Of a stretch of DNA of 64,000 nucleotides, positions 571-60,030 are shown piece by piece. The position numbers were made by a program, and so were the translations under genes. The notes under the pieces were generated by a model that was not told the DNA's origin, did not search any database, and saw only the letters and a list, made by a program, of their open reading frames with translations. The DNA comes from Mycobacterium sp. (GTDB taxonomy: Bacteria; Actinomycetota; Actinomycetes; Mycobacteriales; Mycobacteriaceae): the NCBI GenBank assembly GCA_051006775.1, contig JBPCSX010000148.1. The stretch is one strand, 5' to 3'. How positions within the stretch are numbered: position 1 is the stretch's first letter; the number at the start of each line of letters is the position of its first letter.

Positions 571-2109
571 GTGAGTGATGCGGACCGACCGGACACCGGT
601 CAACGGGAGATCGACCCTGACGGTGCCGACCTGCCCGAGCAGTTCCGCATCCGGCAGGCCAAGCGCGAGCGACTCCTCGAGGAAGGCCACCAGCCGTACC
701 CGGTGACCGTGGCGCGCACCCACTCCCTGGCCGACATCCGCACCGCACATCATGACCTGCCTGCCGATACCAGCACCGGCGAGATCGTCGGCGTCACCGG
801 ACGGGTGGTTTTCGCCCGCAACTCCGGCAAGCTCTGCTTCGCCACCCTGCAGGAGGGCGACGGCTCCCAGTTGCAGGCCATGATCAGCCTGGCCGGCGTC
901 GGGCAGGAATCGCTGGACGCCTGGAAATCCGCCGTGGACCTCGGTGACATCGTCTTCGTGCGCGGAGAGGTGATCAGCTCCCGGCGTGGCGAGCTGTCCG
1001 TACTGGCCGACTCCTGGCAGATGGCGGCCAAGGCCCTGCGACCCCTGCCGGTGGCGCACAAGGAGATGAACGAGGAATCCCGGGTCCGCCAGCGCTACGT
1101 CGACCTGATCGTGCGGCCGCAGGCACGCGCGGTTGCCCGCCAGCGGATCGCCGTCGTGCGCGCGGTGCGCAACGGACTGGAACGGCGTGGGTTTCTCGAG
1201 GTCGAGACCCCGATGCTGCAGACCCTCGCCGGCGGGGCTGCTGCGCGGCCGTTTGTGACGCATTCCAACGCCCTCGATGCCGACCTTTACCTGCGGATCG
1301 CCCCCGAATTATTTCTCAAGCGCTGTGTTGTCGGCGGACTGGAGAAGGTTTTCGAGCTCAATCGCAATTTCCGTAACGAAGGCGCCGATTCAACACACTC
1401 CCCCGAATTCGCAATGCTCGAGACCTATCAGGCCTGGGGAACTTATGACGATTCGGCGCTGATGATCCGCGAACTCGTCCAGGAGGTGGCCGATGAAGCC
1501 ATCGGCACCCGGCAGGTTCCATTGGCGGACGGCACCGTTTATGACCTCGACGGCCAATGGCAGTCCCTGCAAATGTATCCCTCGCTGTCGGAGGCGCTCG
1601 GCGAGGAGATCACCCCGGAAACTCCGCTGGAGTATTTACTCGCCACTGCCGACCGTCTCGAACTGGAGATTCCCAGAGACCGCGGATACGGCCACGGGAA
1701 ACTGATCGAAGAACTCTGGGAGCACACGGTCGGCGACGCATTGTCCGCTCCGACCTTCGTGAAGGATTTCCCGGTCGAGACGACTCCGTTGACCCGCGAG
1801 CACCGCAGCATTCCCGGTGTGACCGAAAAATGGGACCTTTACGTTCGCGGTTTCGAGTTGGCCACCGGATATTCCGAGCTCGTCGATCCGATCATCCAGC
1901 GGGAGCGGTTCGAGGCCCAGGCCCGCGCCGCCGCCGCCGGAGACGACGAGGCAATGGCACTTGACGAGGACTTTCTGGCCGCAATGGAATACGGAATGCC
2001 GCCGACAACGGGAACCGGAATGGGACTGGACCGGTTACTCATGGCCCTGACGGGCCTGTCGATTCGCGAGACGGTTTTGTTCCCAATTGTTAAGCGCTCC
2101 GTGAACTGA
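571..2109 (+). CDS. lysS: Lysyl-tRNA synthetase (class II)
   Basis: OB-fold GKLCFATL, motif 2 FRNEG..HSPEF, motif 3 GMGLDRL. Confidence 0.98.
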
Positions 2110-2212
2110 ACTGCGCAGATTCCATTGACGTTGTAATTTCAGCATCGGTTATGGCACATTAGTTGAAGTAGAAATTGTGCCGTTAGGCGCTAACCGGACA
2201 AACCGAGGAATC

Positions 2213-2557
2213 ATGGCCAAAAAAGTAACCGTCACACTCGTCGACGATTTCGACGGTGAGGGACCCGCCGACGAAACTGTCGAATTCTCGATTGACGGTG
2301 TCAGTTACGAGATCGACCTTTCGGCCCGGAACGCCAAAAAAATCCGTGAGGATTTTAAGCAGTGGATCGACGCCGGTCGCCGGGTCGGCGGTCGTCGCCG
2401 CGGCCGTCCGGGTGGTTCGCCGGGCCGCGGACGGGCCTCGATCGACCGGGAACAGAGCGCGGCCATCCGGGAATGGGCCCGACGCAACGGCCACAAGGTG
2501 TCCACCCGCGGTCGTATTCCGGCCGAGATCATCGAGGCATTCCACGCCGCCGGCTGA
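2213..2557 (+). CDS. lsr2: Nucleoid-associated protein Lsr2
   Basis: [12 protein letters not shown] start, YEIDLS, RGRIP AT-hook. ATG 2213 follows RBS GAGGA. Confidence 0.98.
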
Positions 2558-2577
2558 TCTGCGGCTCCCGGCGCGGT

Positions 2578-2592
2578 TTCGCTCCACGCGAA
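2578..2592. promoter_or_regulatory. Putative ClgR operator TTCGC-N5-GCGAA upstream of clpC1
   Basis: Palindrome TTCGCTCCACGCGAA matches the actinobacterial ClgR motif (CGC-N5-GCG). Confidence 0.6.
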
Positions 2593-2607
2593 GTTGCTGG
2601 TCGGCCG

Positions 2608-2634
2608 GGAAATGTTTTCGCCTCGTCGGCGTTG
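2608..2634 (+). promoter_or_regulatory. Putative ECF (SigH/SigE-type) promoter of clpC1
   Basis: GGAAA-N18-GTTG. Confidence 0.55.
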
Positions 2635-2769
2635 GACTGCTGTATCCACCCCGTGGGGACGGGTACCTGAGCAGGGGAGAACACTCCCCCGCTCCCGCCC
2701 CACTAGAGTGGGCTAACAGGTGCGCGCTGCCCATCGCGGCACCCAGGTGACGGAAGCAGGTAACCACCG

Positions 2770-5289
<2,520 letters not shown>

Positions 5290-25684: not shown

Positions 25685-28654
<2,970 letters not shown>

Positions 28655-28659
28655 CCGCC

Positions 28660-29226
28660 ATGTCGGCTGAACCGATCGATCCTCGCGCGTTCCGTCAGGT
28701 ACTCGGCCAGTTCTGCACCGGGATCACCATCATCACCACCATGCATGAGGGCGAGCCCAACGGTTTTGCCTGCCAGTCCTTCGCTGCACTGTCACTGGAC
28801 CCGCCACTGGTGCTGTTCTGCCCGACCAAGATGTCGAGGTCATGGCAGGCGATCGAGGCCAGCGGGCACTTCTGTGTGAACATCCTGACCGAGGCGCAGC
28901 GCGAGGTGTGCGCCCGGTTCGGGTCGAGGGAACCTGACAAGTTCTCCGGGATCGACTGGCATGAAAGCGGTTTGGGCTCCCCGGTACTGGACGGCTCACT
29001 GGCTCATATCGACTGCACGGTGGCGTCGGTGCATGACGGCGGTGATCACTTCGTGGTGTTCGGCGCCGTGCAGTCGCTATCCGAGGTGCCCAGCGTGAAA
29101 CCCCGACCACTGCTGTTCTATCGCGGTGAGTACACCGGAATCGAGCCGGACAAGAACACTCCGGCGCAGTGGCGTGATGACCTCGAGTCATTCCTGACCA
29201 CCTCCGGCCCGGATACCTGGCTCTAG
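28660..29226 (+). CDS. hsaB: Flavin reductase component of HsaAB
   Basis: IDPRAFRQVLGQFCTG, GGDHFVV, conserved DTWL end. Confidence 0.96.
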   Translation: MSAEPIDPRAFRQVLGQFCTGITIITTMHEGEPNGFACQSFAALSLDPPLVLFCPTKMSRSWQAIEASGHFCVNILTEAQREVCARFGSREPDKFSGIDWHESGLGSPVLDGSLAHIDCTVASVHDGGDHFVVFGAVQSLSEVPSVKPRPLLFYRGEYTGIEPDKNTPAQWRDDLESFLTTSGPDTWL

Positions 29227-32200
29227 TCGGGCATACCGACCAGCACACCCTCTATCGCACCGTCGGTGCCCACCAGCAGTCCCCGGCCAGGTGGCAGCTG
29301 TGCGGCGCTGGTCCGGCCGAACACCTTCACCGCCACGGGATCGTTATCCATAAACAGCGTCGGAGTCCGGGCGCCGGTGAGCTTCTGGAGGAATGGGTTC
29401 ATCGCCGATACGCCAGCCCAGTTTCCGGGCAGCCGGGCGGCGATCACGTGCAGACCGATCTCCCGGCCCCGTTCGATGAGGTTCCACAGCGGGGCCGTGG
29501 CGGCCTGCTGCCCGATTGCGCCGCCGGCGCGAAGTTCCTGCTCGTCGTCGATGAGTACGAAGTGGTGCGGACCTTCCCAGGATCTCCGGCCGAGGAGCTC
29601 AGCCTGTGTCAGGCCCGGTGGTGGCAGGCGACCGGCCATGATGTCGGCGAGTTCTGCGAGCGCGCTGTCGATGTCGACAGCGGTATATGCGTAGGCCCGG
29701 ACAGCGGGCCCCGCGATCCGGCCAATCAGTGTGGTCTTCGGATCGATGATTGTGATCTGAGCCTGCTCGGGCGACAGCCCGGCTGCGATCGCCTGGCCGA
29801 TGGCGGCCAGCGCGCTGGTCTTGCCGCAGCCCTGCCGGCCCATCACGAGCAGATGCGGCAGTTGGCCGGCCGGCAACGCAACGGGTTGTAGTGCGCTCTC
29901 CCCCAGCGCGAACGGAATATCAAACTCGTCCGCGGCCGTACTTCGGTGGGCAGCGAGGATGTCGCGCAATGGAATCCGCCGGGGCAGCCGCGCCAGCGTC
30001 TCCACCTTGCCCATTCCGGTGAGTCCGGTGATGGCAGCGCCGATCTCCCGGGTGGGAATGGCCTCGCCATCGTTTCCACGGAGTTCGGGAAGCCCGATGA
30101 GCAGTTCATGGCCGGTTCTGGTGACGCCGAATCCGGGCCGGTCCACGGTGTTGCGAGCGGCGCGGCGGTGCTCCATCCCGGTGCCCATCGCAGTCTCGTC
30201 CGGATTGCTCAGTCGCAGCTGAATTCTGGCGTTGGCGACGTTCAGTAAGGCCTGCTTCTGCCCTACCAACCAACCGCTTGCGCTGGTGATGATGTGGACC
30301 CCATAGGAAAGCCCCTGTCGCGCAATAGCTATCACCCGGTCTCCGGCGCCGGCATCCTTCTCGTAGAGATCTGCGAAGTTGTCGATGACGAGAAACACGT
30401 CGCCGAACTTGTCTCCCAGATCGGTGTCATGACTTCGCAGTGCCCCAAATCTGCGCTCCCGGAACTCTGCGATGTCTATCTGGAATTGCTTGAATGCAGC
30501 CTCCCTGGCGCGGATCACCCCCTCAACCGTCGCCAGGGTTCGCGACACTCCCTCGGCGTCGGTGACACTGACGACTCCGGCCACATGAGGTATCGCCTCG
30601 ATCGGATATAGCGCCGCTCCGACGCAAAAGAACGTCAGCCTTTCCGGCCGGTACATCAGCGCACCCGCGGTGATCAAGGACATGAGGGTCGTTGACTTCC
30701 CGCGCTGCGCGGTGGCGACGACGATGACATTGTCCATCTCGGCATCGATGACGTGCACCCGTTGGGCGTGGTCCTCGGGAAAGTCCTCCATGCCCACCGG
30801 AAAGACCAGGCCGGGATTGTCGCCATAATCAGCCCACCATGGCTTACCGCGAAAGCGTTCCACGAGTGCGTCGGTGGGCTCGCTGACCTCCAGGGGCGGT
30901 AGCCAGATGCGGTGCGGCGGTCGGGCGGGATGCGCGGCGAGTGATTCACGGATGACGTCGAGGAGCTTCATCTTCTTGAATCCGTCTTGGTGATAGAGGT
31001 ATCTGTCTGGCTCGTCCGGCTGGTCGGCGGCCGCAAGTGCACGGTTGTCCTCAGCACTGAGAGGCTGGTACTCCAAGTTCAGTGATCGAGGCTGGGTGAA
31101 GGAGACCGAGACCGCGGTGTCCGGTTTGGGGAGCTTCGGGACGACGAAGGGTGCTGAGACGTAGAAGCAGCGGAACTGCTCAAGTTCGCGAGGACCGACC
31201 TTGAGAAGTGCGTAGCCATTCTCCTTCGACGGCAGGTGCAGTGCGGCATCGCTACCGATGAGGTCTCGGGAATCCTCGGCCGTCTCAGCCCGTAGCGCGA
31301 CCCGGAAGGCAATGTTGCTCTTGGCCTTGCTCAACGAGGACAGATCCAGGCGCTGTCCCCCGAGGGTGAAGAAGACATTGCAGCCGCGTCCCTCCTGCCC
31401 GATGTGTATGACGAGATCGATCCAGTCCGGATGGTGATGGAAGAGTTCGAGGTATTCATCGATGATCACCAGCAGGATCGGTACCGGCTCGAGGTCACGG
31501 CCGGCCAGCCGCATCTCCTCGTATTCGTTGGCGTCCCTGGCCCCGGCGTCCTTGAAAAGGCGGTAGCGGCGGGCCAGCTCGCCGTCTATCGCTTTGCGCA
31601 TCCTCTCAGCAAGGTGTCGCTCATCGCTGCCGAGATTAGACAGCGAACCCACCACATGCGGCAATCCTTCGAGGTCCTGGGCAGCTGACTCAAACTTCAT
31701 ATCGACGAAGATGACGATGAAGGTCTCCGGTGAATGTGTCAGTGCGATCCCGTTGCACAACGACAGGAAATATTCGGACTTTCCCGAGCCTGAAGTGCCG
31801 ACGACCACCGAGTGGAAGCCATAACCGCCGAAGTCCTTCGCCCGCAGAATGACATGCTGGAGATCACCACCGGGGCGAACACCGACAGGAATCATCGCCC
31901 AGCGCGCATCTCCTCGGCCTCGGCTCTCCGCCCATAACCGGTCCATATCAAGGTTCCTGGGGTCGCTGATACCCAAGGCTCGCAACAGTTCCCCGCCCCC
32001 GCCGTCAGTCTCGGGGAGTTCGGCAGCGATAGCCGGCGACCAACGCGCCATCGTCCGCCCGTAGCGACCGGCCGTGCTCTCGGGGAGCAGATCAGCGACG
32101 GCATAGAAGGATCCGCGATGGGTCAGGCGGCCCTCCCGGAGTTCGAAGCTCTGCTCGTCGCGGCCGAATCCGACGCCGGTTCCGGTCCGTGCGGCAAGTC

Positions 32201-33302
32201 GTAGCACGGTTATCCCGGCCATCCCCTTCTGGCCGGTGACGGCTTCCCACTGCTCCGGTGTGCCGGTGCCGTCATCGACGATTACCCAATGCGGTCCCAG
32301 TCCTGGCGGACCGGCGGCGTTCGTCGGCGACAGCGCCGCGATCGGGCCGGCCCCGACGGGTGGGGTCCATGGACCGCGCCCCTTGCGGTGTAGTTCGGCA
32401 TCGAGTACCTCCTCGAGCTCGGTCGGTGAGGCAAACACCAGCCGCCGCGGCCCGCAGGCATCGACCATGTCGTCGTGTTGGTTATGCGGTAGCCACACCA
32501 GCCACGACCACTGTTCTGGATGCCGGGTCACCACCAGCAGCTTCACATCAGCGGGACTGTGGTGGACTGCCACCGAGCACAGCAGTGAGCGCGTCAGTGC
32601 CCGCAGTTGCGTCACATCGTCACTGATGAAGCTGAATCCAGGTTGCGAACACAGACTCAGCACTTTCGGAATGCCGCGAATCCTGCTCTGTTCCAGCATG
32701 AAATCGCGCAGCGCCCGACCGGTAACCGGCTCGAGTTCTTCGCCGACCGGGACGTCGGGCCACTGCAGTGATACACCGGAGTCCGCGGTCGACTGAACGC
32801 CGGTGCCGAGTCGCACATCGAGGAAGTCCGGATCGGCCGGCCGCCGCTCCCACATCCGCGGTCCGCCGATCACATGAGCGAGCTGCTGCGGATCGCCGTG
32901 CACGAAGGTCTGGCTGCTGCGCTGTTGGTGGGCAGCCCGCTGAATCTCTGCGCGGTCCTCGTCGAGCCGACGTAGGTAGGTCCTGCGCTGCTTCTCCTGT
33001 TCACCCCAGGTGATCCGGCGGGTGCGACCGAGCCGGCCACTGAACATCAACGAGCCGAACCCGACGAGTCCGATCAACGGAAACAGTCCGGACTGCAGGG
33101 ATCGCACTCCGGACGTGTACATCACCAGGATCGTGCCCAGAATTCCCACCAGGAGGGCCGGGGCAGCGATCATCAGCAGGAGGTTGCGCGGCTCGCGCTC
33201 CGGCAGAGCAAGTGGTGCTGGGACGGCAACGCGGAGCGGCGAAACCATCGGGACGGGTGCCCGAACGCCCCGGACGAACCCTTTCTTCGTCATCTCAGCC
33301 AT
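29223..33302 (-). CDS. eccC: Type VII secretion FtsK/SpoIIIE ATPase EccC, unsplit, ESX-2-like
   Basis: 1359 aa. Two N-terminal TM helices, GGPRMWER, GTSGSGKS plus IIDE, AQRGKS, GRQGCGKT, LPPGRGLL. Recalled closeness to EccC2 (LPEREPRN, LEPVTG.ALRDF). Confidence 0.92.
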   Translation of the reverse strand: MAEMTKKGFVRGVRAPVPMVSPLRVAVPAPLALPEREPRNLLLMIAAPALLVGILGTILVMYTSGVRSLQSGLFPLIGLVGFGSLMFSGRLGRTRRITWGEQEKQRRTYLRRLDEDRAEIQRAAHQQRSSQTFVHGDPQQLAHVIGGPRMWERRPADPDFLDVRLGTGVQSTADSGVSLQWPDVPVGEELEPVTGRALRDFMLEQSRIRGIPKVLSLCSQPGFSFISDDVTQLRALTRSLLCSVAVHHSPADVKLLVVTRHPEQWSWLVWLPHNQHDDMVDACGPRRLVFASPTELEEVLDAELHRKGRGPWTPPVGAGPIAALSPTNAAGPPGLGPHWVIVDDGTGTPEQWEAVTGQKGMAGITVLRLAARTGTGVGFGRDEQSFELREGRLTHRGSFYAVADLLPESTAGRYGRTMARWSPAIAAELPETDGGGGELLRALGISDPRNLDMDRLWAESRGRGDARWAMIPVGVRPGGDLQHVILRAKDFGGYGFHSVVVGTSGSGKSEYFLSLCNGIALTHSPETFIVIFVDMKFESAAQDLEGLPHVVGSLSNLGSDERHLAERMRKAIDGELARRYRLFKDAGARDANEYEEMRLAGRDLEPVPILLVIIDEYLELFHHHPDWIDLVIHIGQEGRGCNVFFTLGGQRLDLSSLSKAKSNIAFRVALRAETAEDSRDLIGSDAALHLPSKENGYALLKVGPRELEQFRCFYVSAPFVVPKLPKPDTAVSVSFTQPRSLNLEYQPLSAEDNRALAAADQPDEPDRYLYHQDGFKKMKLLDVIRESLAAHPARPPHRIWLPPLEVSEPTDALVERFRGKPWWADYGDNPGLVFPVGMEDFPEDHAQRVHVIDAEMDNVIVVATAQRGKSTTLMSLITAGALMYRPERLTFFCVGAALYPIEAIPHVAGVVSVTDAEGVSRTLATVEGVIRAREAAFKQFQIDIAEFRERRFGALRSHDTDLGDKFGDVFLVIDNFADLYEKDAGAGDRVIAIARQGLSYGVHIITSASGWLVGQKQALLNVANARIQLRLSNPDETAMGTGMEHRRAARNTVDRPGFGVTRTGHELLIGLPELRGNDGEAIPTREIGAAITGLTGMGKVETLARLPRRIPLRDILAAHRSTAADEFDIPFALGESALQPVALPAGQLPHLLVMGRQGCGKTSALAAIGQAIAAGLSPEQAQITIIDPKTTLIGRIAGPAVRAYAYTAVDIDSALAELADIMAGRLPPPGLTQAELLGRRSWEGPHHFVLIDDEQELRAGGAIGQQAATAPLWNLIERGREIGLHVIAARLPGNWAGVSAMNPFLQKLTGARTPTLFMDNDPVAVKVFGRTSAAQLPPGRGLLVGTDGAIEGVLVGMPD

Positions 33303-34800
33303 CCCCGCCGGCCATCGGCGACATATCGTTACTGGTGATCCCTCGCCCCGACCCCAGCGGCGTTATCGAGTCACGGGACACCAGGGCATCGGACCGGGTG
33401 ATCGCCGGCCCGGCCGCGAAGGTACGCAGGAGCGGCCATGGCGCCTGGGCGGCGCGATCGGGATCTATTGCCAACGCGCTCAACGTCTCTCGGTCTCTTT
33501 CGATCCCATACCGGACGCCCTGCGGCGACACCCAGAAGAGGCTCTCGCGGGTGTCACCGACGAGGCCGCCACCTGTCGATGCGACGAAGTTGGCCGCGCC
33601 CGGGATCATCAGGGTGTGCTGCGCTTCCGTCGAGTCCGGACCGCGGCTGTCGCGCACCAGGCTGACGATGCGGTCATCCAGGGATTGCGGTGTCGGCAGG
33701 CCACGTCCGGAGAAGATCGACACCGCCGCCTGCCGGTCGGTACCGCGTTTGGTCCAACTCACGCAGGTGACCGGGTTGGCAACGGTGTCGATGAAACTCA
33801 GCCGCCCGGTGGGATAGAAGTCCACCTCAAGACCATCGATCTCGGGAATGTGGACCAGGGTGTCCGGTGCGATCAGTTGCGGCTGGGTCACGCCGTGGCT
33901 GTCGGCGGCGCGCAAGAGGTCGGCAACGAATGCGGTGATCTTCTGAACCCCGTTGGCCAGGAGCACATAGAACCCGTTGACCGTTCCGGCGGCGTCGCGG
34001 GTCTGGAGGACACGGCCGACGACCGAACCTGGAAGTAGCCGCGACGGGCTACCCGCCCCCGCAACCGTGGGAACGACCAGGGGTTCAGTCGCGGGCATCG
34101 CATCGAAGAGCGCATTGGAGATGGCAACGGGGTGGACTGCCGCGGTGTCGAGCCCGAGGTTGAAGGTGACCGCTCGGTCCCCTGGGTCGATCCGGGCCCT
34201 TCTGCCGTTCCAGATCAGGTAGGTGGCGTCGTCATGGGTGGCAAGCACGGCCTGGTTCTCCGTCATCACCTGGGCTCGACCCGCACCGGTGAGCTGTCCG
34301 GCGATCGCGGTGACCGTCGGCGCCGCATTGCCGCCGTAGGCAGACGCGGTGTCACAGACCGCCCAGGCCGAGACCGGGTCACCGGACACTGGAAGTTCTC
34401 CCGGGAGTCCCGGGATGCCGATCAACGGTCCGGTGGGGTACTTGTCGATCTCCGACGCCGTCACCCAGGTCGGTGCAGCTGGGCTTCCGGTGGCCAACCG
34501 GGCCGAGGTGAGGTTGAGCGCCGGGTGCAACCGTCCGTCGACTTTCGCATACAGCGCGCCGGTGGAGCGGTTTCCGATTATCGGAGACTGCCCGGCCAGG
34601 CCGGCCGGCTTCATCACCTGCAGCAGGGCCATCCATCCACAGACCAGGGCGACGAACACTGCGGAGAGGGCGAGCGCGGCCTGCTGTTTGCGGTCGTCAT
34701 GTTTCATCCGCACCGAGAACCGGGTGATGGCGGCCCGCAGGCGGCGGTTGTAAAACAGGTGACCCGAGTTTTGGTCCCGGTTTGACAGATTCAGTGGCAC
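33295..34800 (-). CDS. eccB: Type VII secretion membrane component EccB, ESX-2-like
   Basis: PLNLSNRDQNSGHLFYNRRLRAA...MKHDDRKQ resembles the EccB2 N-terminus. One TM, PALNLTSARL, conserved Cys pair, GVRYGI. Confidence 0.92.
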   Translation of the reverse strand: MPLNLSNRDQNSGHLFYNRRLRAAITRFSVRMKHDDRKQQAALALSAVFVALVCGWMALLQVMKPAGLAGQSPIIGNRSTGALYAKVDGRLHPALNLTSARLATGSPAAPTWVTASEIDKYPTGPLIGIPGLPGELPVSGDPVSAWAVCDTASAYGGNAAPTVTAIAGQLTGAGRAQVMTENQAVLATHDDATYLIWNGRRARIDPGDRAVTFNLGLDTAAVHPVAISNALFDAMPATEPLVVPTVAGAGSPSRLLPGSVVGRVLQTRDAAGTVNGFYVLLANGVQKITAFVADLLRAADSHGVTQPQLIAPDTLVHIPEIDGLEVDFYPTGRLSFIDTVANPVTCVSWTKRGTDRQAAVSIFSGRGLPTPQSLDDRIVSLVRDSRGPDSTEAQHTLMIPGAANFVASTGGGLVGDTRESLFWVSPQGVRYGIERDRETLSALAIDPDRAAQAPWPLLRTFAAGPAITRSDALVSRDSITPLGSGRGITSNDMSPMAGGDG

Positions 34801-34813
34801 GACCGCCCCCGGA

Positions 34814-35131
34814 TCATTGAAGACCCTCGCCGTAGCGGGCCTCATGGTCACACAGCGCCTCATCCCGGAGCGCCGCGAACGCGGTGTTGAGCCGTTCCGC
34901 CAGTTCGGTGTGGCTGTAGATCACCATCGCATCGGGGTGCAGGGTCAGCTCGATGAGTTTGCCGTCGGCGTTCGCGACCGCGTGAATATCGCCCATATCC
35001 ACGCTGTAGGTGACGGCTTCAGCCGCTGCCAGATCGGCCTCCCAGCGATCTGTCAAAGCGGTGAGATCGCGTAGGACGGCGTCGACTGTCGCCCTGTCGC
35101 TAAGTCCGTAATCCCCCGTTGACCCCTCCAT
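34814..35131 (-). CDS. Rv0030/DUF2710-like small ESX-associated protein; minus strand, track label + is wrong
   Basis: LSDRATVDAVLRDL...VTYSVDMGDIHAVANADGKLIELTLHP...ARYGEGLQ recalled as close to Rv0030. TGA is the reverse complement of TCA 34814-34816. Confidence 0.78.
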   Translation of the reverse strand: MEGSTGDYGLSDRATVDAVLRDLTALTDRWEADLAAAEAVTYSVDMGDIHAVANADGKLIELTLHPDAMVIYSHTELAERLNTAFAALRDEALCDHEARYGEGLQ

Positions 35132-35137
35132 CGGCAC

Positions 35138-35166
35138 AGTATTTCGGCGGGTTTGAACTGCGTCAA
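35138..35166 (-). promoter_or_regulatory. Putative SigA promoter for the DUF2710-eccB-eccC unit, leaderless
   Basis: TTGACG-N17-AATACT-N6-ATG. The -10 lacks its first T. Confidence 0.45.
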
Positions 35167-35451
35167 TTCACTTTTTGAAACTTGTTGACAATGAATAGAG
35201 GCTGATTCTCAGCAATATCTCAGGTAACATCCGTCACCCCGGAATCGGCGCGCAAGAACCGCGGACTGTCAGGCATTTCACCCTCTCCGGCTGGGCGATC
35301 CGGCGACACCGCCCTCACACGAAAACATTTGCTGGAGGGACCTCTCCAGGGGAGGGTCGCGGGCTCACTACGCTGAAGCCGACCGAGTAACAGGAGGCCG
35401 CCTTGAGCGGTAACGGCGTCCGGAATGACCGCGCCCACGGGCGCCCCACAA

Positions 35452-35495: not shown

Positions 35496-35512
35496 CGCAG
35501 CTCATAGAACTG

Positions 35513-35595
35513 TGGGCGAAGGGGGACTTGAACCCCCACGTCCCGAAGGACACTGGCACCTGAAGCCAGCGCGTCTGCCATTCCGCCACTCGCCC
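35513..35595 (-). tRNA. leuT: tRNA-Leu(CAG), 83 nt, CCA not encoded
   Basis: GGGCGAGTGGCGGAATGGCAGACGCG...CTGGC-TTCAGGT-GCCAG, long variable arm, GTTCAAGTC. Confidence 0.97.
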
Positions 35596-49353: not shown

Positions 49354-51876
49354 TTACGTCGCGTCGGCGTCCTCTCCGGCCTCGTCCTCGCCCTGCTCTT
49401 CGGAGCCCTGCTCCTCAGCATTGCGGGCAATGGCTATCAGTGTGTCGCCCTCGCCCAGGTTCATCAAGCGAACGCCCTTGGTTTGGCGCCCCGCCTTGCG
49501 GACCTGCCGTGCCGCAGTACGAATCACTCCTCCGCCGGAGGTGATGGCGTACAGCTCGCTGTCGTCATCGACCACCAGCGCGCCCACCAGACTGCCACGG
49601 CGGGCGTCGTACTGGATGGTCAGGATGCCTTTACCGCCGCGGCCCTGCGGGCTGTACTCCTCGATCGCGGTGCGCTTGGAGAAGCCGCCGGCGGTGGCGA
49701 CCAGCAGATAGGTTCCCTCACGGACCACGTTCAACGACAACAGCTCATCGTCGGCGTTGAATCGCATGCCCTGCACACCGGACGTTGCCCGGCCCATCGG
49801 GCGCAGCGCCTCATCGGTGGCGGAGAACCTGATCGACTGGCCCTTCGCGCTCACCAGCAGCAGGTCCTCCTCGGCGGAGCACAGCACCGCACCCACCAGC
49901 TCGTCGCCGTCGCGCAGATTGACCGCCACGATGCCGCCCGAGCGGTTGGAGTCGAAGTCGGTCAGCTTGGACTTCTTCACCAGGCCGTTGCGGGTGGCAA
50001 GCACCAGATACGGGGCATCCTCGTAGGTCTTGATCTGGATGACCTGCGCGATGCGCTCGTCGGGCTGGAATGCCAGCAGGTTGGCCACGTGCTGCCCGCG
50101 GGCCGCCCGCAGCGACTCCGGCAGCTCATAGGCCTTCGCCCGGTAGACCCGGCCCTGCGTGGTGAAGAACAGGATCCAATCGTGGGTGGAGCAGACAAAG
50201 AAGTGCCGCACGATGTCGTCCTGCTTGAGCGCGGCGCCCTGCACGCCCTTGCCGCCGCGCTTCTGGCTGCGGTACAGGTCGGTCTTGGTCCGCTTGGCGT
50301 AGCCGGTCTCGGTGATCGTCACGACCACCTCTTCACGGGCGATGAGGTCTTCGTCCGACACCTCGCCCTCGGCGCCGACTATGCGGGTGCGCCGATCGTC
50401 ACCGTGCTTCTCGACGATCTCAGCGAGCTCGTCGCGCACGATGCCGCGCTGGCGCTCCGGCTTGGCCAGAATGTCCTCGAGGTCGGCGATCTCGGTCTCG
50501 ATCTCGGCCAGTTGGTCGACGATCTTCTGCCGCTCCAGGGCAGCCAGCCGGCGCAGCTGCATGTCGAGGATGGCCTGGGCCTGGATATCGTCGATATCGA
50601 GTAGTTCGATCAGGCCGGTCCTGGCGACGTCGACGGTCTCCGACGCGCGGATCAACGCGATCACCGCGTCGAGGGCGTCAAGTGCCTTGACCAGACCGCG
50701 CAGGATGTGGGCCCGTTCGTTGGCCTTGCGCAGCCGGTAGGTGGTCCGCCGCACGATCACGTCGAGCTGGTGCGCCACGTAGTAGCGGATCATCTGGTCC
50801 AGCCGCAGGGTGCGCGGCACACCGTCAACGATCGAAAGCATGTTGCAGCCGAAGCTGGTCTGCAGCTGGGTGTGCTTGTAGAGGTTGTTCAGCACCACCT
50901 TGGCGACGGCATCGCGTTTGATCTCCACGACGATGCGCAGGCCCACCCGGTCGCTGGACTGGTCCTCGATGTTGGAGATTCCGGCAAGCTTGCCTTCGCG
51001 CACCTGATCGGCGATCGAGGTGATGAAGTTGTCGTGGTTGACCTGGTAGGGCAACTCGGTGATGACGATGCCGGTTCGCCCGCGGGAGTCCTCTTCGATC
51101 TCCACCACACCGCGCATCCGGACCGAGCCTCGGCCGGTTGTGTAGGCGTCGATGACACCGGAGGTGCCGACGATCAAACCGGAGGTCGGGAAGTCCGGCC
51201 CCTTGATCCGTTCGATCATCGCCGCGAGTGTGGTTTCCTCATCGGCCTCGTGGTTCTCCAGGCACCAGTAGACGGCGTCGGCGAGTTCGCGGAGATTGTG
51301 CGGCGGGATGTTGGTGGCCATGCCGACGGCGATACCACCGGAGCCGTTGGCAAGCAGGTTGGGAAAGCGGCTCGGCAGAACCGTCGGCTCCTGCACCCGG
51401 CCGTCGTAGTTGGGAACGAAATCGACTGTCTCCTCGTCGATTTCACGGAGCATATCCATGGCCAGCGGAGTGAGCCGGGCCTCGGTGTACCTCATGGCGG
51501 CCGGCGGGTCGTTACCCGGCGAGCCGAAGTTGCCCTGCCCGTCGACCAACGGGTAGCGCAGCGACCACGGCTGGGCCATCCGGACCAGGGTGTCGTAAAT
51601 CGAGGAGTCGCCGTGCGGGTGATAGTTGCCCATCGTCTCGGCGACCGAGCGCGCCGACTTGGCGTGGCTGCGGTCGGGCCGGAACCCGGAGTCGTACATG
51701 GCGTAGAGCACCCGGCGGTGCACCGGCTTGAGGCCGTCTCGCACTTCGGGCAACGCGCGCCCGACGATGACGCTCATCGCGTAGTCGATGTAGCTGTTCT
51801 GCATCTCCTGCTGGATGTCGACAGGTTCGATCCGGTCGCCAGTGGTCCCGTCGGGCGGCAGGGTGGTGTCAGTCAT
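49354..51876 (-). CDS. gyrA: DNA gyrase subunit A
   Basis: [14 protein letters not shown] catalytic Tyr, QKRGGKG GyrA-box. Confidence 0.99.
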
Positions 51877-51909
51877 CTGATTCAGTCCCTAATCGGCTAA
51901 AAATCGTCG

Positions 51910-54057
<2,148 letters not shown>

Positions 54058-54179
54058 CTATTTGGACCGTGCGCGGAATATCTCGGATCGACTCTCGTCC
54101 GGACGCTTGACACGCCCGGTTTTGGCGTCCTGGTGGCGCTGAGGCTAGGCCAATGTGGTAAGCATTCGGCGGGTCCGGC

Positions 54180-54737
54180 CTATCCGTAGGTGTCGCGCGG
54201 ACCTCTCCCCCGGACATGCAGCGGTCCCTTCCGCCACGACGGCGCCACCGGGCCGGTGATTTTGAGTGCGGTCACCACACCATCGCCCACCGCCGCGGCG
54301 ATCTTGGCTAAGAGTTGCGCCTGAACCATACGAAGTTGGGTCGCCCAGGCCGTGGACTCGGCGGCCACGTGCAAGACACCCTCACGCAGCGAGGTCGGCG
54401 TGGCGTGTTCGGCGATCTGCTCCCCGACCACGCTCGCCCATTCAGCGAAGACGGTGCCCTCGGCAACGCGCCCGGACCAGCCCTGGGTCTTGGCCAACTC
54501 GCGCGAAACCCGCCCGACCGGTTGGGGGTCACGGCTATCGGGACCGGGCCCCGACCAGCGCCGACGGTTGTCCCGCGGGTTGCCGGTGCGCTGCTTCCTC
54601 GGGGAACGGCGACCGTGGCCGACATCTTTACCCTGGCCGCGGGCTGCAGCTCGGGCCTCCTCGAGTGCGCGGCGCACGAGATCCATTCCGGGCACATCTT
54701 TGAGGTGGTCGGGCGGCAGGTCATCGGGTTCGGTCAT
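54180..54737 (-). CDS. DUF721/DciA-like protein (Rv0004-like)
   Basis: [30 protein letters not shown]...RGPRDTYG. Confidence 0.92.
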
Positions 54738-55882
54738 GCGCTCACCTCCGATCCCCGTCCGGACTCATCCTCGCGCATGTGGATCGCGATCCGGGTGGCC
54801 TCCCAGTCGGCCGGAATGTCGTCGCCGACAGCCGCGGTGACCAGGACCTGTTCCGCCGATGCGGCGACCCCGGCCAGCGCGCGGCGCCGGGAGTCGTCGA
54901 GTTCGGCGAACACGTCGTCGAGGATGAGAATCGGCTCGCTGCCCTCAGCGCGCAACAACTCGTAGGCGGCCAGCCTCAGCGCAAGTGCCATCGACCATGA
55001 CTCGCCATGGCTGGCGAACCCTTTCGCCGGTTGGTCCCCGAGCCGCAGTTCCAGATCATCGCGGTGCGGACCGACCAGGCACACCCCCCGCTCGAGTTCA
55101 GCATTGCGCCGGGCGGCCAGGCCCGCCAGCAGCGCGGCCTCGAGATACTCCACATCGGCGGTATCGGATCCTGCTGGGTCGATACTTGGCCGATAGCTGA
55201 TCGCAGCGGGCCGCGATGCGGGCGCGAGTAGCTGGTAGGCCTTCTCCACTTCCGGGCCGAGCTGATTGATCAGTTCGAGTCGGGCGGCCATCAACTGCGC
55301 GCCATGGGCAGCAAGGTGGCCGTCCCACACATCGAGGGTTTCGAGAACCCCGTGATCCCCCCGGAATCGGGCAGCCGAGGCCGACTTCAGCAGAGCCGTG
55401 CGCTGTTTGAGAACCTTGTCGTAGTCAGCGCGTACACCGGCAATTGTCGGCCGTCGCAGGGTCGCCAACTCGTCGAGATAGCGCCGTCGCTCGGCGGGGT
55501 CGCCGCGGACCAGTGCCAGATCCTCGGGCGCGAACAACACCGCGCGCACCGCCCCCAGGACCTCGCGTGTACTGCGTACCGGTGAGCGATTCAGCCGCGC
55601 TTTGTTCGCTCGCCCAGCCGCGATCTCGATATCGACAGCGAGTTCGCGGCCCTCGTTGACCACAATCGCCGAGACGACGGCCCGTTCGGCGCCGGCCCTG
55701 ACCAATGGGGCGTCGGTTCCCACCCGGTGGGAACCGAGGGTCGCGCAGTACCACAGAGCCTCCACGATGTTCGTTTTTCCGAACCCGTTGGGTCCGACGA
55801 ATACCGTGCGGCCCGGGGAGAGCTCGAGATCCAGGGCAGACCAGGACCGGAAGTCGTGCAGAGCAAGGTGTCGGACATACAT
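54734..55882 (-). CDS. recF: DNA replication/repair protein RecF
   Basis: [29 protein letters not shown]. Confidence 0.98.
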
Positions 55883-55923
55883 GGTCGCGGGTGGGCCCTA
55901 TCCGGATAGTGGAACCCTCAAGG

Positions 55924-57117
55924 TCAGCCGGGCAGGCGGACCGGCATCAGCAGGTACACGTAATCGGTGTCCCCGGCTGGGAACGGGCCCACTGATGAGT
56001 CGTCCGGAGCGCTGTCACCAGCGGGCCGCAGCACCGCCGGCTTACTGGCCGTGGTGAATCCGAAGGTCACCCGATCACTGTGCAATGAGCCGAGACCATC
56101 GGTCAGGTAAGTCGGGTTGAAAGCAATGGTCAACGGTTCTCCGACGAAGTCGACCGCGAGATCCTCTTCGGCCAGACCCACGCCGTCAGCACCACCGGCC
56201 GCCAGGTGCAGCACATCGGCGGCGAACTCCATCCGGACTTGGGCACCGCGGTCGGCGACCAGGGCCACTCGTTTGATGGCGTCGGTGAGCTCGGCCACCC
56301 CGACGGTCGCCAGCGCAGTGTGCTCAGTGGGTAGCAGCTGACGAAATTTCGGGAACTCGGTGTCCAGCAGGCGCGTGGTGCTGCGCTTTCCGGCACTGCG
56401 AATTCCGAGGAGACGTTCCTCGCCAACCGACGCGCCGGCGCCCAGCGCGAGGTGGACATCGGAACCAGAAGTCACAGCCTTGGCGGCTTCGGCGAGGGTT
56501 TTCGCCGGGACCAGAACCGCGGCATCGACACCCGGGGAGTTGGTGGACCATGTGAGTTCCCGTACGGCCAGGCGGAACCGGTCGGTTGCTGAGAGGACCA
56601 CCTTGTCACCGGAAATCTCGACCCGGATTCCGGTCAGCATCGGCAGGGTGTCATCTCGACCGGCGGCGACCGCAACCTGTCCCACGGCCTCGGTGAACAG
56701 GTCGGCAGCAACCACGCCGGTCTCCGCCGGGAGCGTCGGAAGAGCCGGGTAGTCCTCGACCGGCATGGCGGGGAGGGAAAATTTTGCACTCCCACAACTC
56801 AGAAGAACACGATTTCCGTCGACGCTGACGTCGACGGGCTTGGCCGGCAAGGCCCGGGTGATATCCGACAAAAGACGCCCGGAGAACAAAACTGTTCCCG
56901 GAGAAGCGATTTCGGCGGGAATGAGCACTTCACTGGACACGTCGTAGTCGAATCCGGCGATTTTCAGACCTTCGTCGGATCCGGTGATCAACACGCCGGC
57001 CAGGACGGGGACGGCCGGCCGGCTGGGAAGACTCCGGGCCACCCAGGCAACCGCATCGGCGAAATCCTCACGGACCAGGCGAAATCTCAAATCGGAGCCC
57101 ACCGTTGTGGTCGCCAC
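55924..57117 (-). CDS. dnaN: DNA polymerase III beta clamp
   Basis: [35 protein letters not shown]. Confidence 0.98.
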
Positions 57118-57147
57118 GTTCAATCGTGTCCCTTCATCACCCGGCAA

Positions 57148-57599
57148 CGCCGCCGTTACCGTGCGGTCCGATGACCAACCGTAAAGCGTCGGTGCCCATC
57201 TTGAACGTTAAATGCCAGGGCTGACAACCCGGACGAAAGCGGCCCCGGAGGGCGGCCGGTGCGAGTTTTCCCCAGGGCCCTTCTTCTAGAAGAAAACCTT
57301 TAAGTAACTGACAGCAATAGTAATAGGTGCTGTGCAAGCTGTGGATTACCGGGTATCGAACCTGATCAGGTGGGGTAGCGGGTTGTGGATGGATTGTGGA
57401 CAGCTGTGGACGCGTCTAGGACTGGCTGTGGAAGGAATTCGGGCCTCCGCAGTTGTTCGGTTCGAACGGCGCGTCTGCTCTGTAGTTCCTAACAAGGTCT
57501 ACACAACCTGATGGTGTGAACACTGATACGGGTGCGGCCAAAGTTTTTTGGTGACGTCTGCAGTTTGCGGCGTCGATTGGCGTTGAGTACCGGCAAATC
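57148..57599. other. Chromosomal replication origin oriC (dnaA-dnaN intergenic)
   Basis: AT-rich element about 57283-57330. DnaA-box-like TGTGGA repeats at 57340, 57384, 57395, 57405, 57427. Expected mycobacterial location. Confidence 0.92.
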
Positions 57600-59081
57600 T
57601 CAGCGCTTGGACCGCTGACGGATCCGCGTGGTGAGTTCCTTCACGTGATCGAAGACCTCGCGGCGGTAAGCCATTTCATTGAGGATCTTCTTCTGGGCGT
57701 ACATGACAGTCGTGTGGTCGCGGCCGAACGCCTGGCCGATCTTCGGAAGTGACAGGTCGGTGAGTTCGCGGCAGAGATACATCGCGATCTGGCGAGATTG
57801 AGCCAACGCACGGGTTTTACCCGGTCCACGCAGTTCCTCGACGGTGGTCTCGAAGTACTCGGCGGTGGCGGCCATGATCATCGCCGAGCTGATCTGTGCA
57901 GTGCCGGCGTCGGCAATCAGGTCCCGCAGCACTATCTCGGCGAGAGCCGTATCGATCGGCGCCCTGTTGAGTGATGCAAACGCGGTTACCCGAATGAGTG
58001 CGCCCTCTAGTTCGCGGATGTTGCGTTCGATGCTGCTGGCGATGAGCTCCAGGACATCGTCGGGTACGTCCAAGCGTTCCATCTGCGCTTTCTTGCGCAG
58101 AATAGCGATCCGGGTTTCCAATTCCGGCGGCTGGACGTCGGTGATCAGACCCCACTCGAACCGGGTTCGGAGCCGGTCCTCGAGGGTGGCCAGTTTCTTG
58201 GGCGGGCGATCGGAGGAGATCACGATCTGCTTGTTGGCGTTGTGGAGGGTGTTGAAGGTGTGGAAGAACTCCTCCTGGATGCCCTCCTTACCCTCGATGA
58301 ACTGGATGTCATCGACTAAAAGCACGTCGATGTCCCGGTAGCTGCGCTTGAACGCCACCCGGCGGTCATCGCGCAGCGAGTTGATGAAGTCGTTGGTGAA
58401 TTCCTCGGTCGAGACGTACTTGACCCGCATTCCGGGAAAAAGCCGCTGGGCGTAGTTACCGGCGGCGTGCAGGAGGTGCGTTTTGCCCAGACCGGACTCA
58501 CCCCAGATGAACAGCGGATTGTACGCACGTGCGGGTGCCTCGGCGATCGCCAGAGCAGCAGCATGGGCGAAGCGGTTCGATGCGCCGATGATGAATGTGT
58601 CAAAGGTGTACCTGCGGTTGAGGCTGGTCTCGGCTTTCTCACCGGAGCCATTGTCCCGCGGCTTTTCGATGAAGTAGCTCGGCCAGGTCTCGTGCGCGCT
58701 GGCCAGCGCTTCACTGTCTTCGTCGACCTCGTCCAGATCAGACTCAACCCCACCGGCCTCGGCGGCACCCGGGGCATCGTCGCCGGACGGTTCGATACGT
58801 ACGCCGAGCTCGACGCGTTGACCCAACCGTCGGCTGAGGGCGTCGACTATCGGTGTTCGGAGGTGGCGCTCGATTTCGTTCTGTACGAATGAACTTGGCA
58901 CCGACAGCAGGGCGAATCCCTCGGCGATGGTCAACGGTCGGACCAGTTTGAGCCAAGCCCGCTGCTGGGGGGTGAGCGGATTGTCGGTGGGGCCGCCGGC
59001 CGCCCCGTCGTGGTCGCCGTTGAGTTCGGCGACCACCGAACCCCAAACGGTGGCGAAATCAGAACCTGGGTCGTCCCCCAA
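57600..59081 (-). CDS. dnaA: Replication initiator DnaA (TTG start)
   Basis: [33 protein letters not shown]. Confidence 0.98.
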
Positions 59082-59134
59082 CAACAGGTCCCCCAGTTCA
59101 AATCTTGGCGTTGAAAAAAGACGGTGTCCCGAAA

Positions 59135-59166
59135 CTGTCCACATAGTTATCCACAGTTGTGTACAG
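59135..59166. promoter_or_regulatory. DnaA boxes upstream of dnaA (autoregulation)
   Basis: CTGTCCACA 59135-59143, TTATCCACA 59147-59155, inverted CTGTACACA 59158-59166. Confidence 0.85.
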
Positions 59167-59512
59167 GTAGGGGTATTCCTTATTCGCAGCGTATCGGCAG
59201 TAAATGTCTGTTGGCTGCGAATCGGACAGGAGGGTCCGGAGTCGTTGCCCTGCCAGAAGCTAACAGGTTTCCAGCCGGGTGCCAACCGGTGAACAATGCC
59301 GCCCGCGCCCGCTCGGACGGCTGACCCGGATAGGGCGGTTTGACCTGCGCAAGTGCGGTCAGTACCCTCGACTCGTCGCCCGAATGTGGTGATACGGCTG
59401 CGACCGGGTCCTCCGGGGCCGCGCCGGTTAGTGCCAAGCTGATCGATAGCGACCACGTTGTCCGAGGAAACGTCCCCGGAGCGCGGCCTGCGAATGACGA
59501 GGAGACATAGCC

Positions 59513-59656
59513 GTGGCCAAGGGCAAGCGGACCTTCCAGCCGAACAACCGTCGGCGGGCCAGGGTGCATGGGTTTCGTCTGCGGATGCGCACTCGCGCCG
59601 GCCGGGCAATCGTCTCGGGTCGTCGGCGCAAGGGCCGTCGCTCGCTGACTGCCTGA
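59513..59656 (+). CDS. rpmH: 50S ribosomal protein L34 (not in ORF track)
   Basis: [47 protein letters not shown]. Confidence 0.98.
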
Positions 59657-59673
59657 CCAACCGGTCGCCCAAC

Positions 59674-60030
59674 GTGCTCCCGGCTCGACACCGGATGACA
59701 CGGTCTGCAGACTTCGGCACCACGGTCAAACGCGGTGTGCGAGCGGCGCAACCGGATCTTGTTGTCCATGCCCATCGCGGTGAAGGAAATCCCCGTGGAC
59801 CTGCGATCGGCTTCGTCGTCAGCAAATCCGTGGGCGGTTCAGTGCAGCGGCATCGGGTCTCCCGGCGCTTGCGGCATCTGGTCGGCAGCATGATTAGCAA
59901 TCTCGAGCCCACCGACCGCATCGTCATCCGCGCGCTACCCGGCAGCCGGACAGCCACGTCAGCGCGGTTGCGGCAGGAACTGGGGGCGGCACTTGACCGG
60001 GCTCAGCAGTTGATGGAGCGGCGCCGGTGA
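59674..60030 (+). CDS. rnpA: RNase P protein component
   Basis: [29 protein letters not shown]. Confidence 0.95.

Follow-up and report, generated by a model that had tools for sequence, protein, structure and literature searches.

The window analysed here is a stretch of 64,000 nucleotides from a metagenome-assembled genome (MAG) of Mycobacterium sp. (GCA_051006775.1, contig JBPCSX010000148.1, hereafter C148), in which the genes for DUF2710, EccB and EccC lie side by side on the minus strand. These three genes are very probably the promoter-proximal unit of a complete chromosomal type VII secretion system (T7SS) of the ESX-2 type, the only T7SS found in the MAG, whose cluster was cut just after the stop codon of eccC. 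An earlier note on the same DNA had taken the trio for an orphan lacking the rest of the secretion machine. This is not the case: scans of the whole MAG, which has 3.52 Mb in 254 contigs and is 93.6% complete and 2.2% contaminated, located the remaining components on two other contigs, C59 and C99.

The second half of the system

Family profile scans over all contigs of the MAG gave one EccB and one EccC, both in the window, one EccD on C59 (304 bits), one MycP (mycosin) divided over the contig end C59/C99 (365 bits), one EccE on C99, and two WXG100 proteins, both on C59. The EccD and MycP scores are above the cut-off, and an extra EccC match on C37 is FtsK-like. A PE protein (23.9 bits; cut-off 22), PPE, EspG, and the N-terminal and AAA domains of EccA were likewise found by Pfam. 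The order over C59 and C99, confirmed by Pfam, is PE-PPE-esx-esx-espG-ParA/MinD-type ATPase-eccD-mycP-eccE-eccA, in which the ParA-type ATPase is EspI/Rv3888c-like.

When all 13 ESX proteins were searched against the MAG with tblastn, no paralogue of any of them was found, and neither the family scan nor tblastn gave WXG100 or PE/PPE substrates in the MAG beyond the set of the back half. The T7SS core (EccB, three-domain EccC, EccD, and MycP) is thus present in single copy, together with the WXG100 pair, PE-PPE, EspG, EccE, and EccA. Since this is the sole EccB/EccC/EccD/EccE/MycP set and has no paralogue, the trio is the front part of the only T7SS found in the genome, and not an orphan.

The two parts do not form one contiguous cluster; contiguity is typical of ESX loci but does not strictly define them. 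It was correctly noted earlier that the rest of the machine is absent locally: in the window, no EccD, MycP, WXG100, or PE/PPE gene follows eccC, and the genes next to it are the convergent hsaB-hsaC-hsaD-hsaA (HsaB identified by NF045630, 2.4e-95). On the other side, C59 begins behind an aminotransferase gene: its first 91 bp overlap the end of C4 at 91% identity, and C4 ends in the aminotransferase gene and not in eccC. On C59, the 110 bp in front of PE can be aligned with the ~120-bp spacer between eccC and PE in contiguous relatives. This means that the break occurred within a few bases of the eccC stop codon, and that the spacer left with the back half.

The front operon

The features of the front half are as follows.

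29223-33302, minus strand: eccC, 1359 aa; TIGR03924 (1.3e-211) and TIGR03925 (7.5e-171), both above the cut-off.
33295-34863 (longest open reading frame (ORF), 522 aa), minus strand: eccB, T7SS core membrane component; TIGR03919 (2.3e-135) and PF05108 (2.6e-143).
34814-35131 from ATG, or 34814-35137 from GTG, minus strand: DUF2710 gene, 105 aa from ATG (107 from GTG); PF10921 (E 2.7e-36, 124.6 bits).
35138-35166, minus strand: front-operon promoter predicted by a consensus scan, with the boxes TTGACG and AATACT 17 nt apart and the second box stopping 6 nt short of the ATG at 35131.
35512-35595, minus strand: tRNA-Leu(CAG), leuT, found by ARAGORN.
29223-29226, strandless: rearrangement junction eccC|hsaB, interlocked stop codons in the sequence.

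The trio is intact beside tRNA-Leu, as had been described: the three minus-strand frames at 29223-35137 are free of internal stops and match their profiles. The tight coupling was also correct, with an overlap between eccB and eccC of exactly 8 bp (33295-33302). The 13-bp gap reported between DUF2710 and eccB is obtained only with a GTG start of eccB at 34800, and this start or one nearby is likely; with the longest ORF (ATG 34863) the overlap with DUF2710 would be 50 bp, and in the annotation of close relatives it is 20 bp. At the other end, the stop codons of eccC (minus) and hsaB (plus) share one CTAG, so that there is zero intergenic DNA.

EccC is a fused EccCa+EccCb motor ATPase with three FtsK/SpoIIIE domains, all of which are present as claimed. 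The Walker A/B motifs are canonical in domain 1 (GTSGSGKS/LLVIIDEY) and domain 3 (GRQGCGKT/FVLIDDEQ), whereas domain 2 is degenerate (ATAQRGKS/VFLVIDNF), as is usual in EccC proteins. The AT-richer parts of eccC that had been noticed by eye are real, with a GC content of 0.59-0.62 at nucleotides 1500-3000 of the gene, which lies in the 2nd-5th percentile of the 1-kb windows of this genome. This patch was considered as a mark of transfer and rejected. The dip is found at the same place in all orthologues examined, split or contiguous, and is therefore a property of the eccC gene and not a sign of recent transfer.

DUF2710 is the opening gene of ESX-2-type loci; in 74 of 80 orthologous loci it precedes eccB, either directly or at a distance of ~1.2 kb. 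A PDB sequence search with the protein gave no match. Its AlphaFold model (pLDDT 85) consists of a helix, three strands, and a helix (H-EEE-H). The top fold matches in the PDB all belong to the YbaB/EbfC family (3f42, 1ybx, 1j8b, 1pug, and 5yrx) and are weak (E 0.01-0.14, TM 0.4-0.68, none with E <= 0.001). On the basis of this model, DUF2710 might plausibly be a small YbaB-like adaptor or nucleoid-type protein.

Two predicted promoter regions

The predicted promoter lies immediately upstream of DUF2710, and a GTTGCTG-type box (ATTGCTG here) is found near 35210, another ~50 nt upstream. When 16 loci are aligned, GAATTGAC, a 17-nt spacer, and (A/C)ATACT, with ATG/GTG 6-7 bases on, are invariant in split and contiguous loci and in rapid- and slow-growing relatives. 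The pattern GAATTGAC-N16-20-TACT has one occurrence in the whole 3.5-Mb genome. The motif looks like a strong promoter. Because the predicted promoter ends 6 nt before the ATG, the mRNA of the front operon is probably leaderless.

The spacer upstream of PE on C59 contains another set of conserved boxes: TTTGCTG, TCGACA, CAGCACAC, and a TANNNT element. The same boxes are found in L158, a contig of a close relative described below. The (G/T)TTGCTG box is common to both upstream regions and could be the site of a shared regulator, in which case the two halves may be co-regulated. From these conserved motifs we infer two transcription units in the ESX-2-type cluster, contiguous or not, each giving an independent transcript. 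Breaks at the boundary between eccC and PE would then be neutral and tolerated, and might recur for this reason.

The two promoter regions differ in their core elements, and the 15 junction partners found after eccC (see below) suggest naturally independent units. It might therefore be supposed that the halves are cognate but functionally uncoupled, the front half having separate regulation or an added role in stoichiometry, timing, or substrates encoded elsewhere. However, the (G/T)TTGCTG box in both regions hints at common control, the same two promoter regions are present in contiguous loci, and there are no extra WXG100 or PE/PPE substrates in the MAG. Uncoupling of the halves thus seems quite improbable.

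The junctions in independent assemblies

Both junctions were found in other samples. The eccC|hsaB (flavin reductase) junction occurs in three further independent assemblies, L045 (EccC 81%), L155 (90%), and L156 (89%), and in L156 the trio is bordered on its other side by the complete pknA...fhaA flank. L158, an independent JGI metagenome contig of a close relative (ATPase 93%), carries the aminotransferase gene (89%) followed by PE through eccA. Relatives were counted as split (n=25) when eccC had no core back-half genes (EspG to EccA) in the 10-kb downstream flank; one of them, L064, retains PPE after eccC. An orthologous EccD (54-68%) was found elsewhere in the genome in 22 of these 25 genomes with a detached front half. 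It is preceded by the ParA-like ATPase in 21 of the 22, and in most it is flanked by EspG and MycP. An EccD protein search was also tried as a counter of ESX systems in relatives and was dropped, as it overlooked known paralogues in M. litorale. In two long-contig MAGs, the halves are apparently on the same contig, as judged from contig numbering, ~63 and ~125 kb apart and in opposite orientation. Inverted, far-apart halves appear to be the layout that an inversion would leave.

Some points weigh against a complete and divided system in this genome. The gene for eccA is cut off by the end of C99. The ends of C59 and C99 overlap with single-nucleotide polymorphisms (SNPs), with 93% amino-acid identity over the common mycP end, as do C4 and C59 over the 91 bp described above; the SNPs at these overlaps indicate strain heterogeneity in the sample, which broke the assembly within the second ESX half. 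That C4, C59, and C99 are physically linked to C148 is deduced from binning and from how relatives behave. A second ESX locus could lie in the missing ~6% of the MAG, since the description as the only T7SS rests on one MAG of the completeness given above. In addition, the EccD of the closest relative (G041) is in two pieces, owing to a frameshift or an assembly error, and two members of the same EccC clade, L054 and L057, have contiguous loci.

The number of contigs and the SNPs at the C59/C99 and C4/C59 ends could also be taken to mean that the split is an artefact of assembly or binning, the halves being truly adjacent or C59 and C99 coming from another organism. Against this, the cognate eccD, mycP, and esx genes, whose contiguity in a corrected assembly would have been at odds with the earlier note, are non-contiguous with the trio in the independent assemblies: eccC|hsaB recurs in L045, L155, and L156, and aminotransferase|PE in L158. 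Long contigs of relatives appear to hold both halves far apart, and the GC content of C59 and C99 matches that of the genome. An artefact is accordingly very improbable.

Recurrence of the split

The history of the split was followed on a quick LG+G4 tree of EccC, which is a gene tree and may differ from the species tree. The window protein belongs to a well-supported clade of 23 rows, mostly from metagenome-derived small genomes; 18 of these loci are split, two are contiguous, and three were left unassigned. The split or joined state changes at least three times in a clade of 31 rows and at least six times on the whole EccC tree. The first 1 kb past eccC was sorted by tblastx clustering, as ORF-based naming is too noisy in high-GC DNA, and fell into 15 unrelated classes among 27 split loci. 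One upstream flank is common to seven loci, including the contiguous L054, and several of the 15 junction partners fall within the subclade that shares this flank with a contiguous relative.

A single ancestral split of the whole clade was considered and is unsupported in view of these changes and the differing junction partners; the contiguous loci L054 and L057 nested inside the clade mean that such an event is not the whole story. The boundary may have been broken repeatedly, or a single break may have been followed by repeated reshuffling; the EccC gene tree does not decide between the two.

A second class of break leaves eccB-eccC-PE-PPE apart from esx-esx-espG and the following genes. 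It was found in the L063-L111 clade, which includes M. simulans (L094), M. asiaticum (L095), and Mycobacterium sp. pR1184 (L066), and in which no espG or eccD lies within 10 kb of eccB-eccC-PE-PPE. The orthologous eccD of pR1184 and of one Microflora Danica MAG is on another contig, or ~63 kb off and inverted. Metagenome loci that have esx-esx-espG and the following genes with no PE/PPE upstream fit this class. In this clade PE-PPE stay with eccB-eccC, whereas in the present genome the break is directly after eccC.

One further subclade has a PE-PPE pair (L107:4325-5715 and L075:61-1609) that is 55-63% identical to the pair of this genome. In L107, PE-PPE lie ~2.4 kb upstream of DUF2710-eccB-eccC, with unrelated reading frames between them. 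This placement suggests yet another rearranged layout.

ESX type and ancestral site

The anchors used for typing EccC were solved structures, in place of a named ESX-1 to ESX-5 phylogeny. Against M. tuberculosis EccC2 (6jd5), the ATPase-3 domain reaches 232 bits, compared with 122-133 for EccC5, 87 for EccCb1, and 60 for EccC3. EccC4 has no solved structure for comparison, and ESX-4 is excluded by gene content. One database homologue with 77% identity is named EccC2. When the halves are joined, the order is eccB-eccC-PE-PPE-esx-esx-espG-(ParA-like ATPase)-eccD-mycP-eccE-eccA, with eccA last, which is also the order in 28 contiguous orthologous loci. An eccA gene at the downstream end is a trait of ESX-2/5 (PMC4779608). 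The EccC2-best score of ATPase-3 and the gene order place the system in the ESX-2 family, so that the ESX-2 type assigned earlier stands.

The same gene set and order are found in ESX-2 of M. tuberculosis (eccB2-eccC2-PE36-PPE69-esxD-esxC-espG2-Rv3888c-eccD2-mycP2-eccE2-eccA2): eccA is last and the ParA-type ATPase is between espG and eccD in both. In contrast to M. tuberculosis, the cluster here is in two places and lies by leuT rather than next to ESX-1. The similarity of EccC to M. tuberculosis EccC2 is moderate, and its orthologues of 74-90% identity are mainly in environmental and rapid-grower-like mycobacteria.

These chromosomal orthologues are numerous and include M. litorale, M. komossense, M. 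palauense, M. aichiense, M. fragae, M. simulans, M. asiaticum, and M. kubicae. The 76-79% orthologues in the first four mean that this ESX-2 type is not restricted to slow growers and the M. terrae complex, the distribution given for ESX-2 in the literature. An ancestral ESX-2 (ESX-2AN) has been described in M. tusciae, which is related to M. komossense and M. aichiense (PMC4791881). As here, the cluster is ESX-2-like, chromosomal, and found among the rapid growers of the genus, and the presence of orthologues in rapid growers fits this concept. The contiguous orthologous loci in M. komossense (76%), M. aichiense (79%), M. litorale, and M. palauense may be equivalent to ESX-2AN.

Among 184 plasmid records, the best EccC is 46.9% identical and most are 32-36%, and the flanks of the trio are housekeeping and steroid-catabolism genes. 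A recent plasmid origin or a plasmid-borne ESX (ESX-P2/P2') was therefore rejected, the plasmid EccC proteins reaching <= 47% against 74-90% for chromosomal ones. The suggestion that the trio is one half of a plasmid-derived ESX split by the rearrangement thus holds in essence for the split half, whereas a recent derivation from a plasmid is not supported.

In L118 (Mycobacterium sp. SM1), a contiguous ESX-2-type locus starts at tRNA-Leu(CAG). The order at L118:196-8502 is tRNA-Leu(CAG), WhiB, HTH_3, NlpC/P60, two DUF4226, EspC-like, DUF5631/DUF5632, DUF2710, and SLT-like, followed by eccB-eccC-PE and so on. An accessory arm of this type is not present between leuT and DUF2710 in the window, where leuT lies 375 bp upstream of DUF2710. 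The tRNA-Leu gene was considered as an integration site of an island, which was rejected in favour of ancestral synteny in view of L118. The front half is still at the ancestral site, whereas the accessory arm save DUF2710 was lost and the back half moved away.

It was also proposed earlier that the trio is a swappable EccB/EccC substrate-recognition module docking on another ESX core in trans. The trio is indeed autonomous, with its own predicted promoter, and detached trios are common. However, no other ESX core was found in the MAG, the sole EccD/MycP/EccE set is of the cognate ESX-2 type, and the identity of EccD to relatives is alike in split (54-68%) and contiguous (55-65%) genomes. A borrowed core is hardly credible.

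Selection on both halves

The ratio of nonsynonymous to synonymous substitution rates (dN/dS) of the front half was calculated against L156, L155, and L045, all of which have the same eccC|hsaB junction. The values are 0.09-0.25 for DUF2710, 0.15-0.17 for eccB, and 0.09-0.11 for eccC. The flanking hsa, fadE, fhaA, and pstP genes gave 0.04-0.16, and up to 0.21 for fhaA against L045. For the ten back-half genes, compared with L157 and L158, dN/dS was 0.06-0.28. All 13 genes are under purifying selection. The arrangement eccC|hsaB is kept between genomes with a synonymous divergence (dS) of ~0.5 and ~1.2, and the latter value, against L045, means that it is old.

A decaying remnant after loss or relocation of the rest, which the earlier note had thought recent, would suit the small genome (3.5 Mb), the absence of the L118 accessory arm (whiB to DUF5631 and the SLT genes), and a relative, G011, that keeps eccB and only the first 354 residues of eccC, but this is scarcely tenable with frames intact over 5.9 kb, catalytic motifs all kept, dN/dS not near 1 but similar to that of the neighbours, and an arrangement of this age.

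Neighbouring genes

The hsa genes that meet eccC tail-to-tail form a complete hsaA-hsaD-hsaC-hsaB steroid ring-cleavage cluster at 25685-29226 on the plus strand, with four NCBIfam equivalogs above the cut-off. Beyond this cluster, relatives have a ferredoxin gene, a gene for a 701-aa FadE, and a TetR gene.

On the other side, past leuT, lies the fhaA-fhaB-pstP-rodA-pbpA-pknA-pknB cluster, named from the annotation of the syntenic relative L156. It is followed by the replication-origin region, with gyrA, gyrB, recF, dnaN, and dnaA at 49354-59957, all on the minus strand. The site of the trio and leuT is thus ~22 kb from dnaA and the replication origin. Of the 785 aa of the dnaA ORF, only residues 331-779 are covered by the DnaA model, so that the gene probably starts inside this ORF. 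The GC content dips to 0.59-0.62 at 52-54 kb and 57-59 kb of the window.

It should be mentioned that gyrB (51910-54057, minus strand) has an in-frame TAG at 52192-52194 (...EHEFA*SDRERD...). Past the TAG, the 93 residues of the C-terminus stay in frame; the match to the GyrB model stops at position 546 of its 641. The TAG might stem from a wrong base in the MAG consensus or from variation between strains, or it might be a genuine nonsense codon, which here would fall in an essential gene.

A divided ESX-2-type system

The following course of events would account for these observations. The cluster was presumably cut in two right after the eccC stop codon. The front unit, DUF2710-eccB-eccC, would have stayed at the ancestral leuT site near oriC, and the back unit, from PE to eccA, would now stand behind the aminotransferase gene together with the old eccC-PE intergenic region. 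With its own conserved promoter region, each unit could be expressed separately. By homology with the solved ESX-3 and ESX-5 complexes, the products would come together in the membrane in trans as an EccB-EccC-EccD-EccE machine with MycP. By the same analogy, we infer that this machine would be active in secretion, with the Esx pair and the PE-PPE pair chaperoned by EspG as its substrates.

Split ESX-2 systems have already been published. In M. decipiens and M. riyadhense, ESX-2 is in two genomic sections, as confirmed by PCR, and is only 50-68% identical to M. tuberculosis ESX-2 (Sous et al., 2024; PMC11237670). These systems are split and of the same divergent grade as the present one; their hosts differ, as both species are slow growers related to M. 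tuberculosis and possess the full set of five ESX systems. The M. avium complex is marked by "the transposition of EccB2 and EccC2" (Newton-Foot et al., 2016; PMC4791881). The same two genes are parted from the rest of ESX-2 there as in the present genome, in a different lineage, a likeness drawn from the statement of that paper, which comes without junction detail. To these published cases the present genome adds its own cognate second half, support for both junctions from independent assemblies, the selection on 13 genes, and the two conserved promoter regions.

As a result, a false lead is removed: the trio is not a free-standing or borrowed module and should not be scored as a new minimal T7SS. 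There is also a simple reason for a cut after eccC, as the cluster seems to be two separately promoted units.

A wider interpretation is put forward tentatively, as one that may well not hold. ESX-3 and ESX-4 are called ubiquitous in the genus in the literature. The present genome might represent a genome-reduced, mostly freshwater and wastewater lineage that has a divergent ESX-2-type system as its sole T7SS, without ESX-3 and ESX-4. The boundary between eccC and PE might be a recurrent rearrangement point, for which two autonomously promoted units sharing a (G/T)TTGCTG control box would be a plausible reason. If this is true, ESX-2 would serve a housekeeping function in mycobacteria that live freely, and its architecture would be modular by nature. 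Few mycobacterial secretion systems are less well understood than ESX-2: in M. tuberculosis, phagosome permeabilisation and toxin trafficking are the only roles reported for it (PMC8593097). A lineage from the environment that apparently relies on ESX-2 alone would be a harmless model for the role of ESX-2 outside the host.

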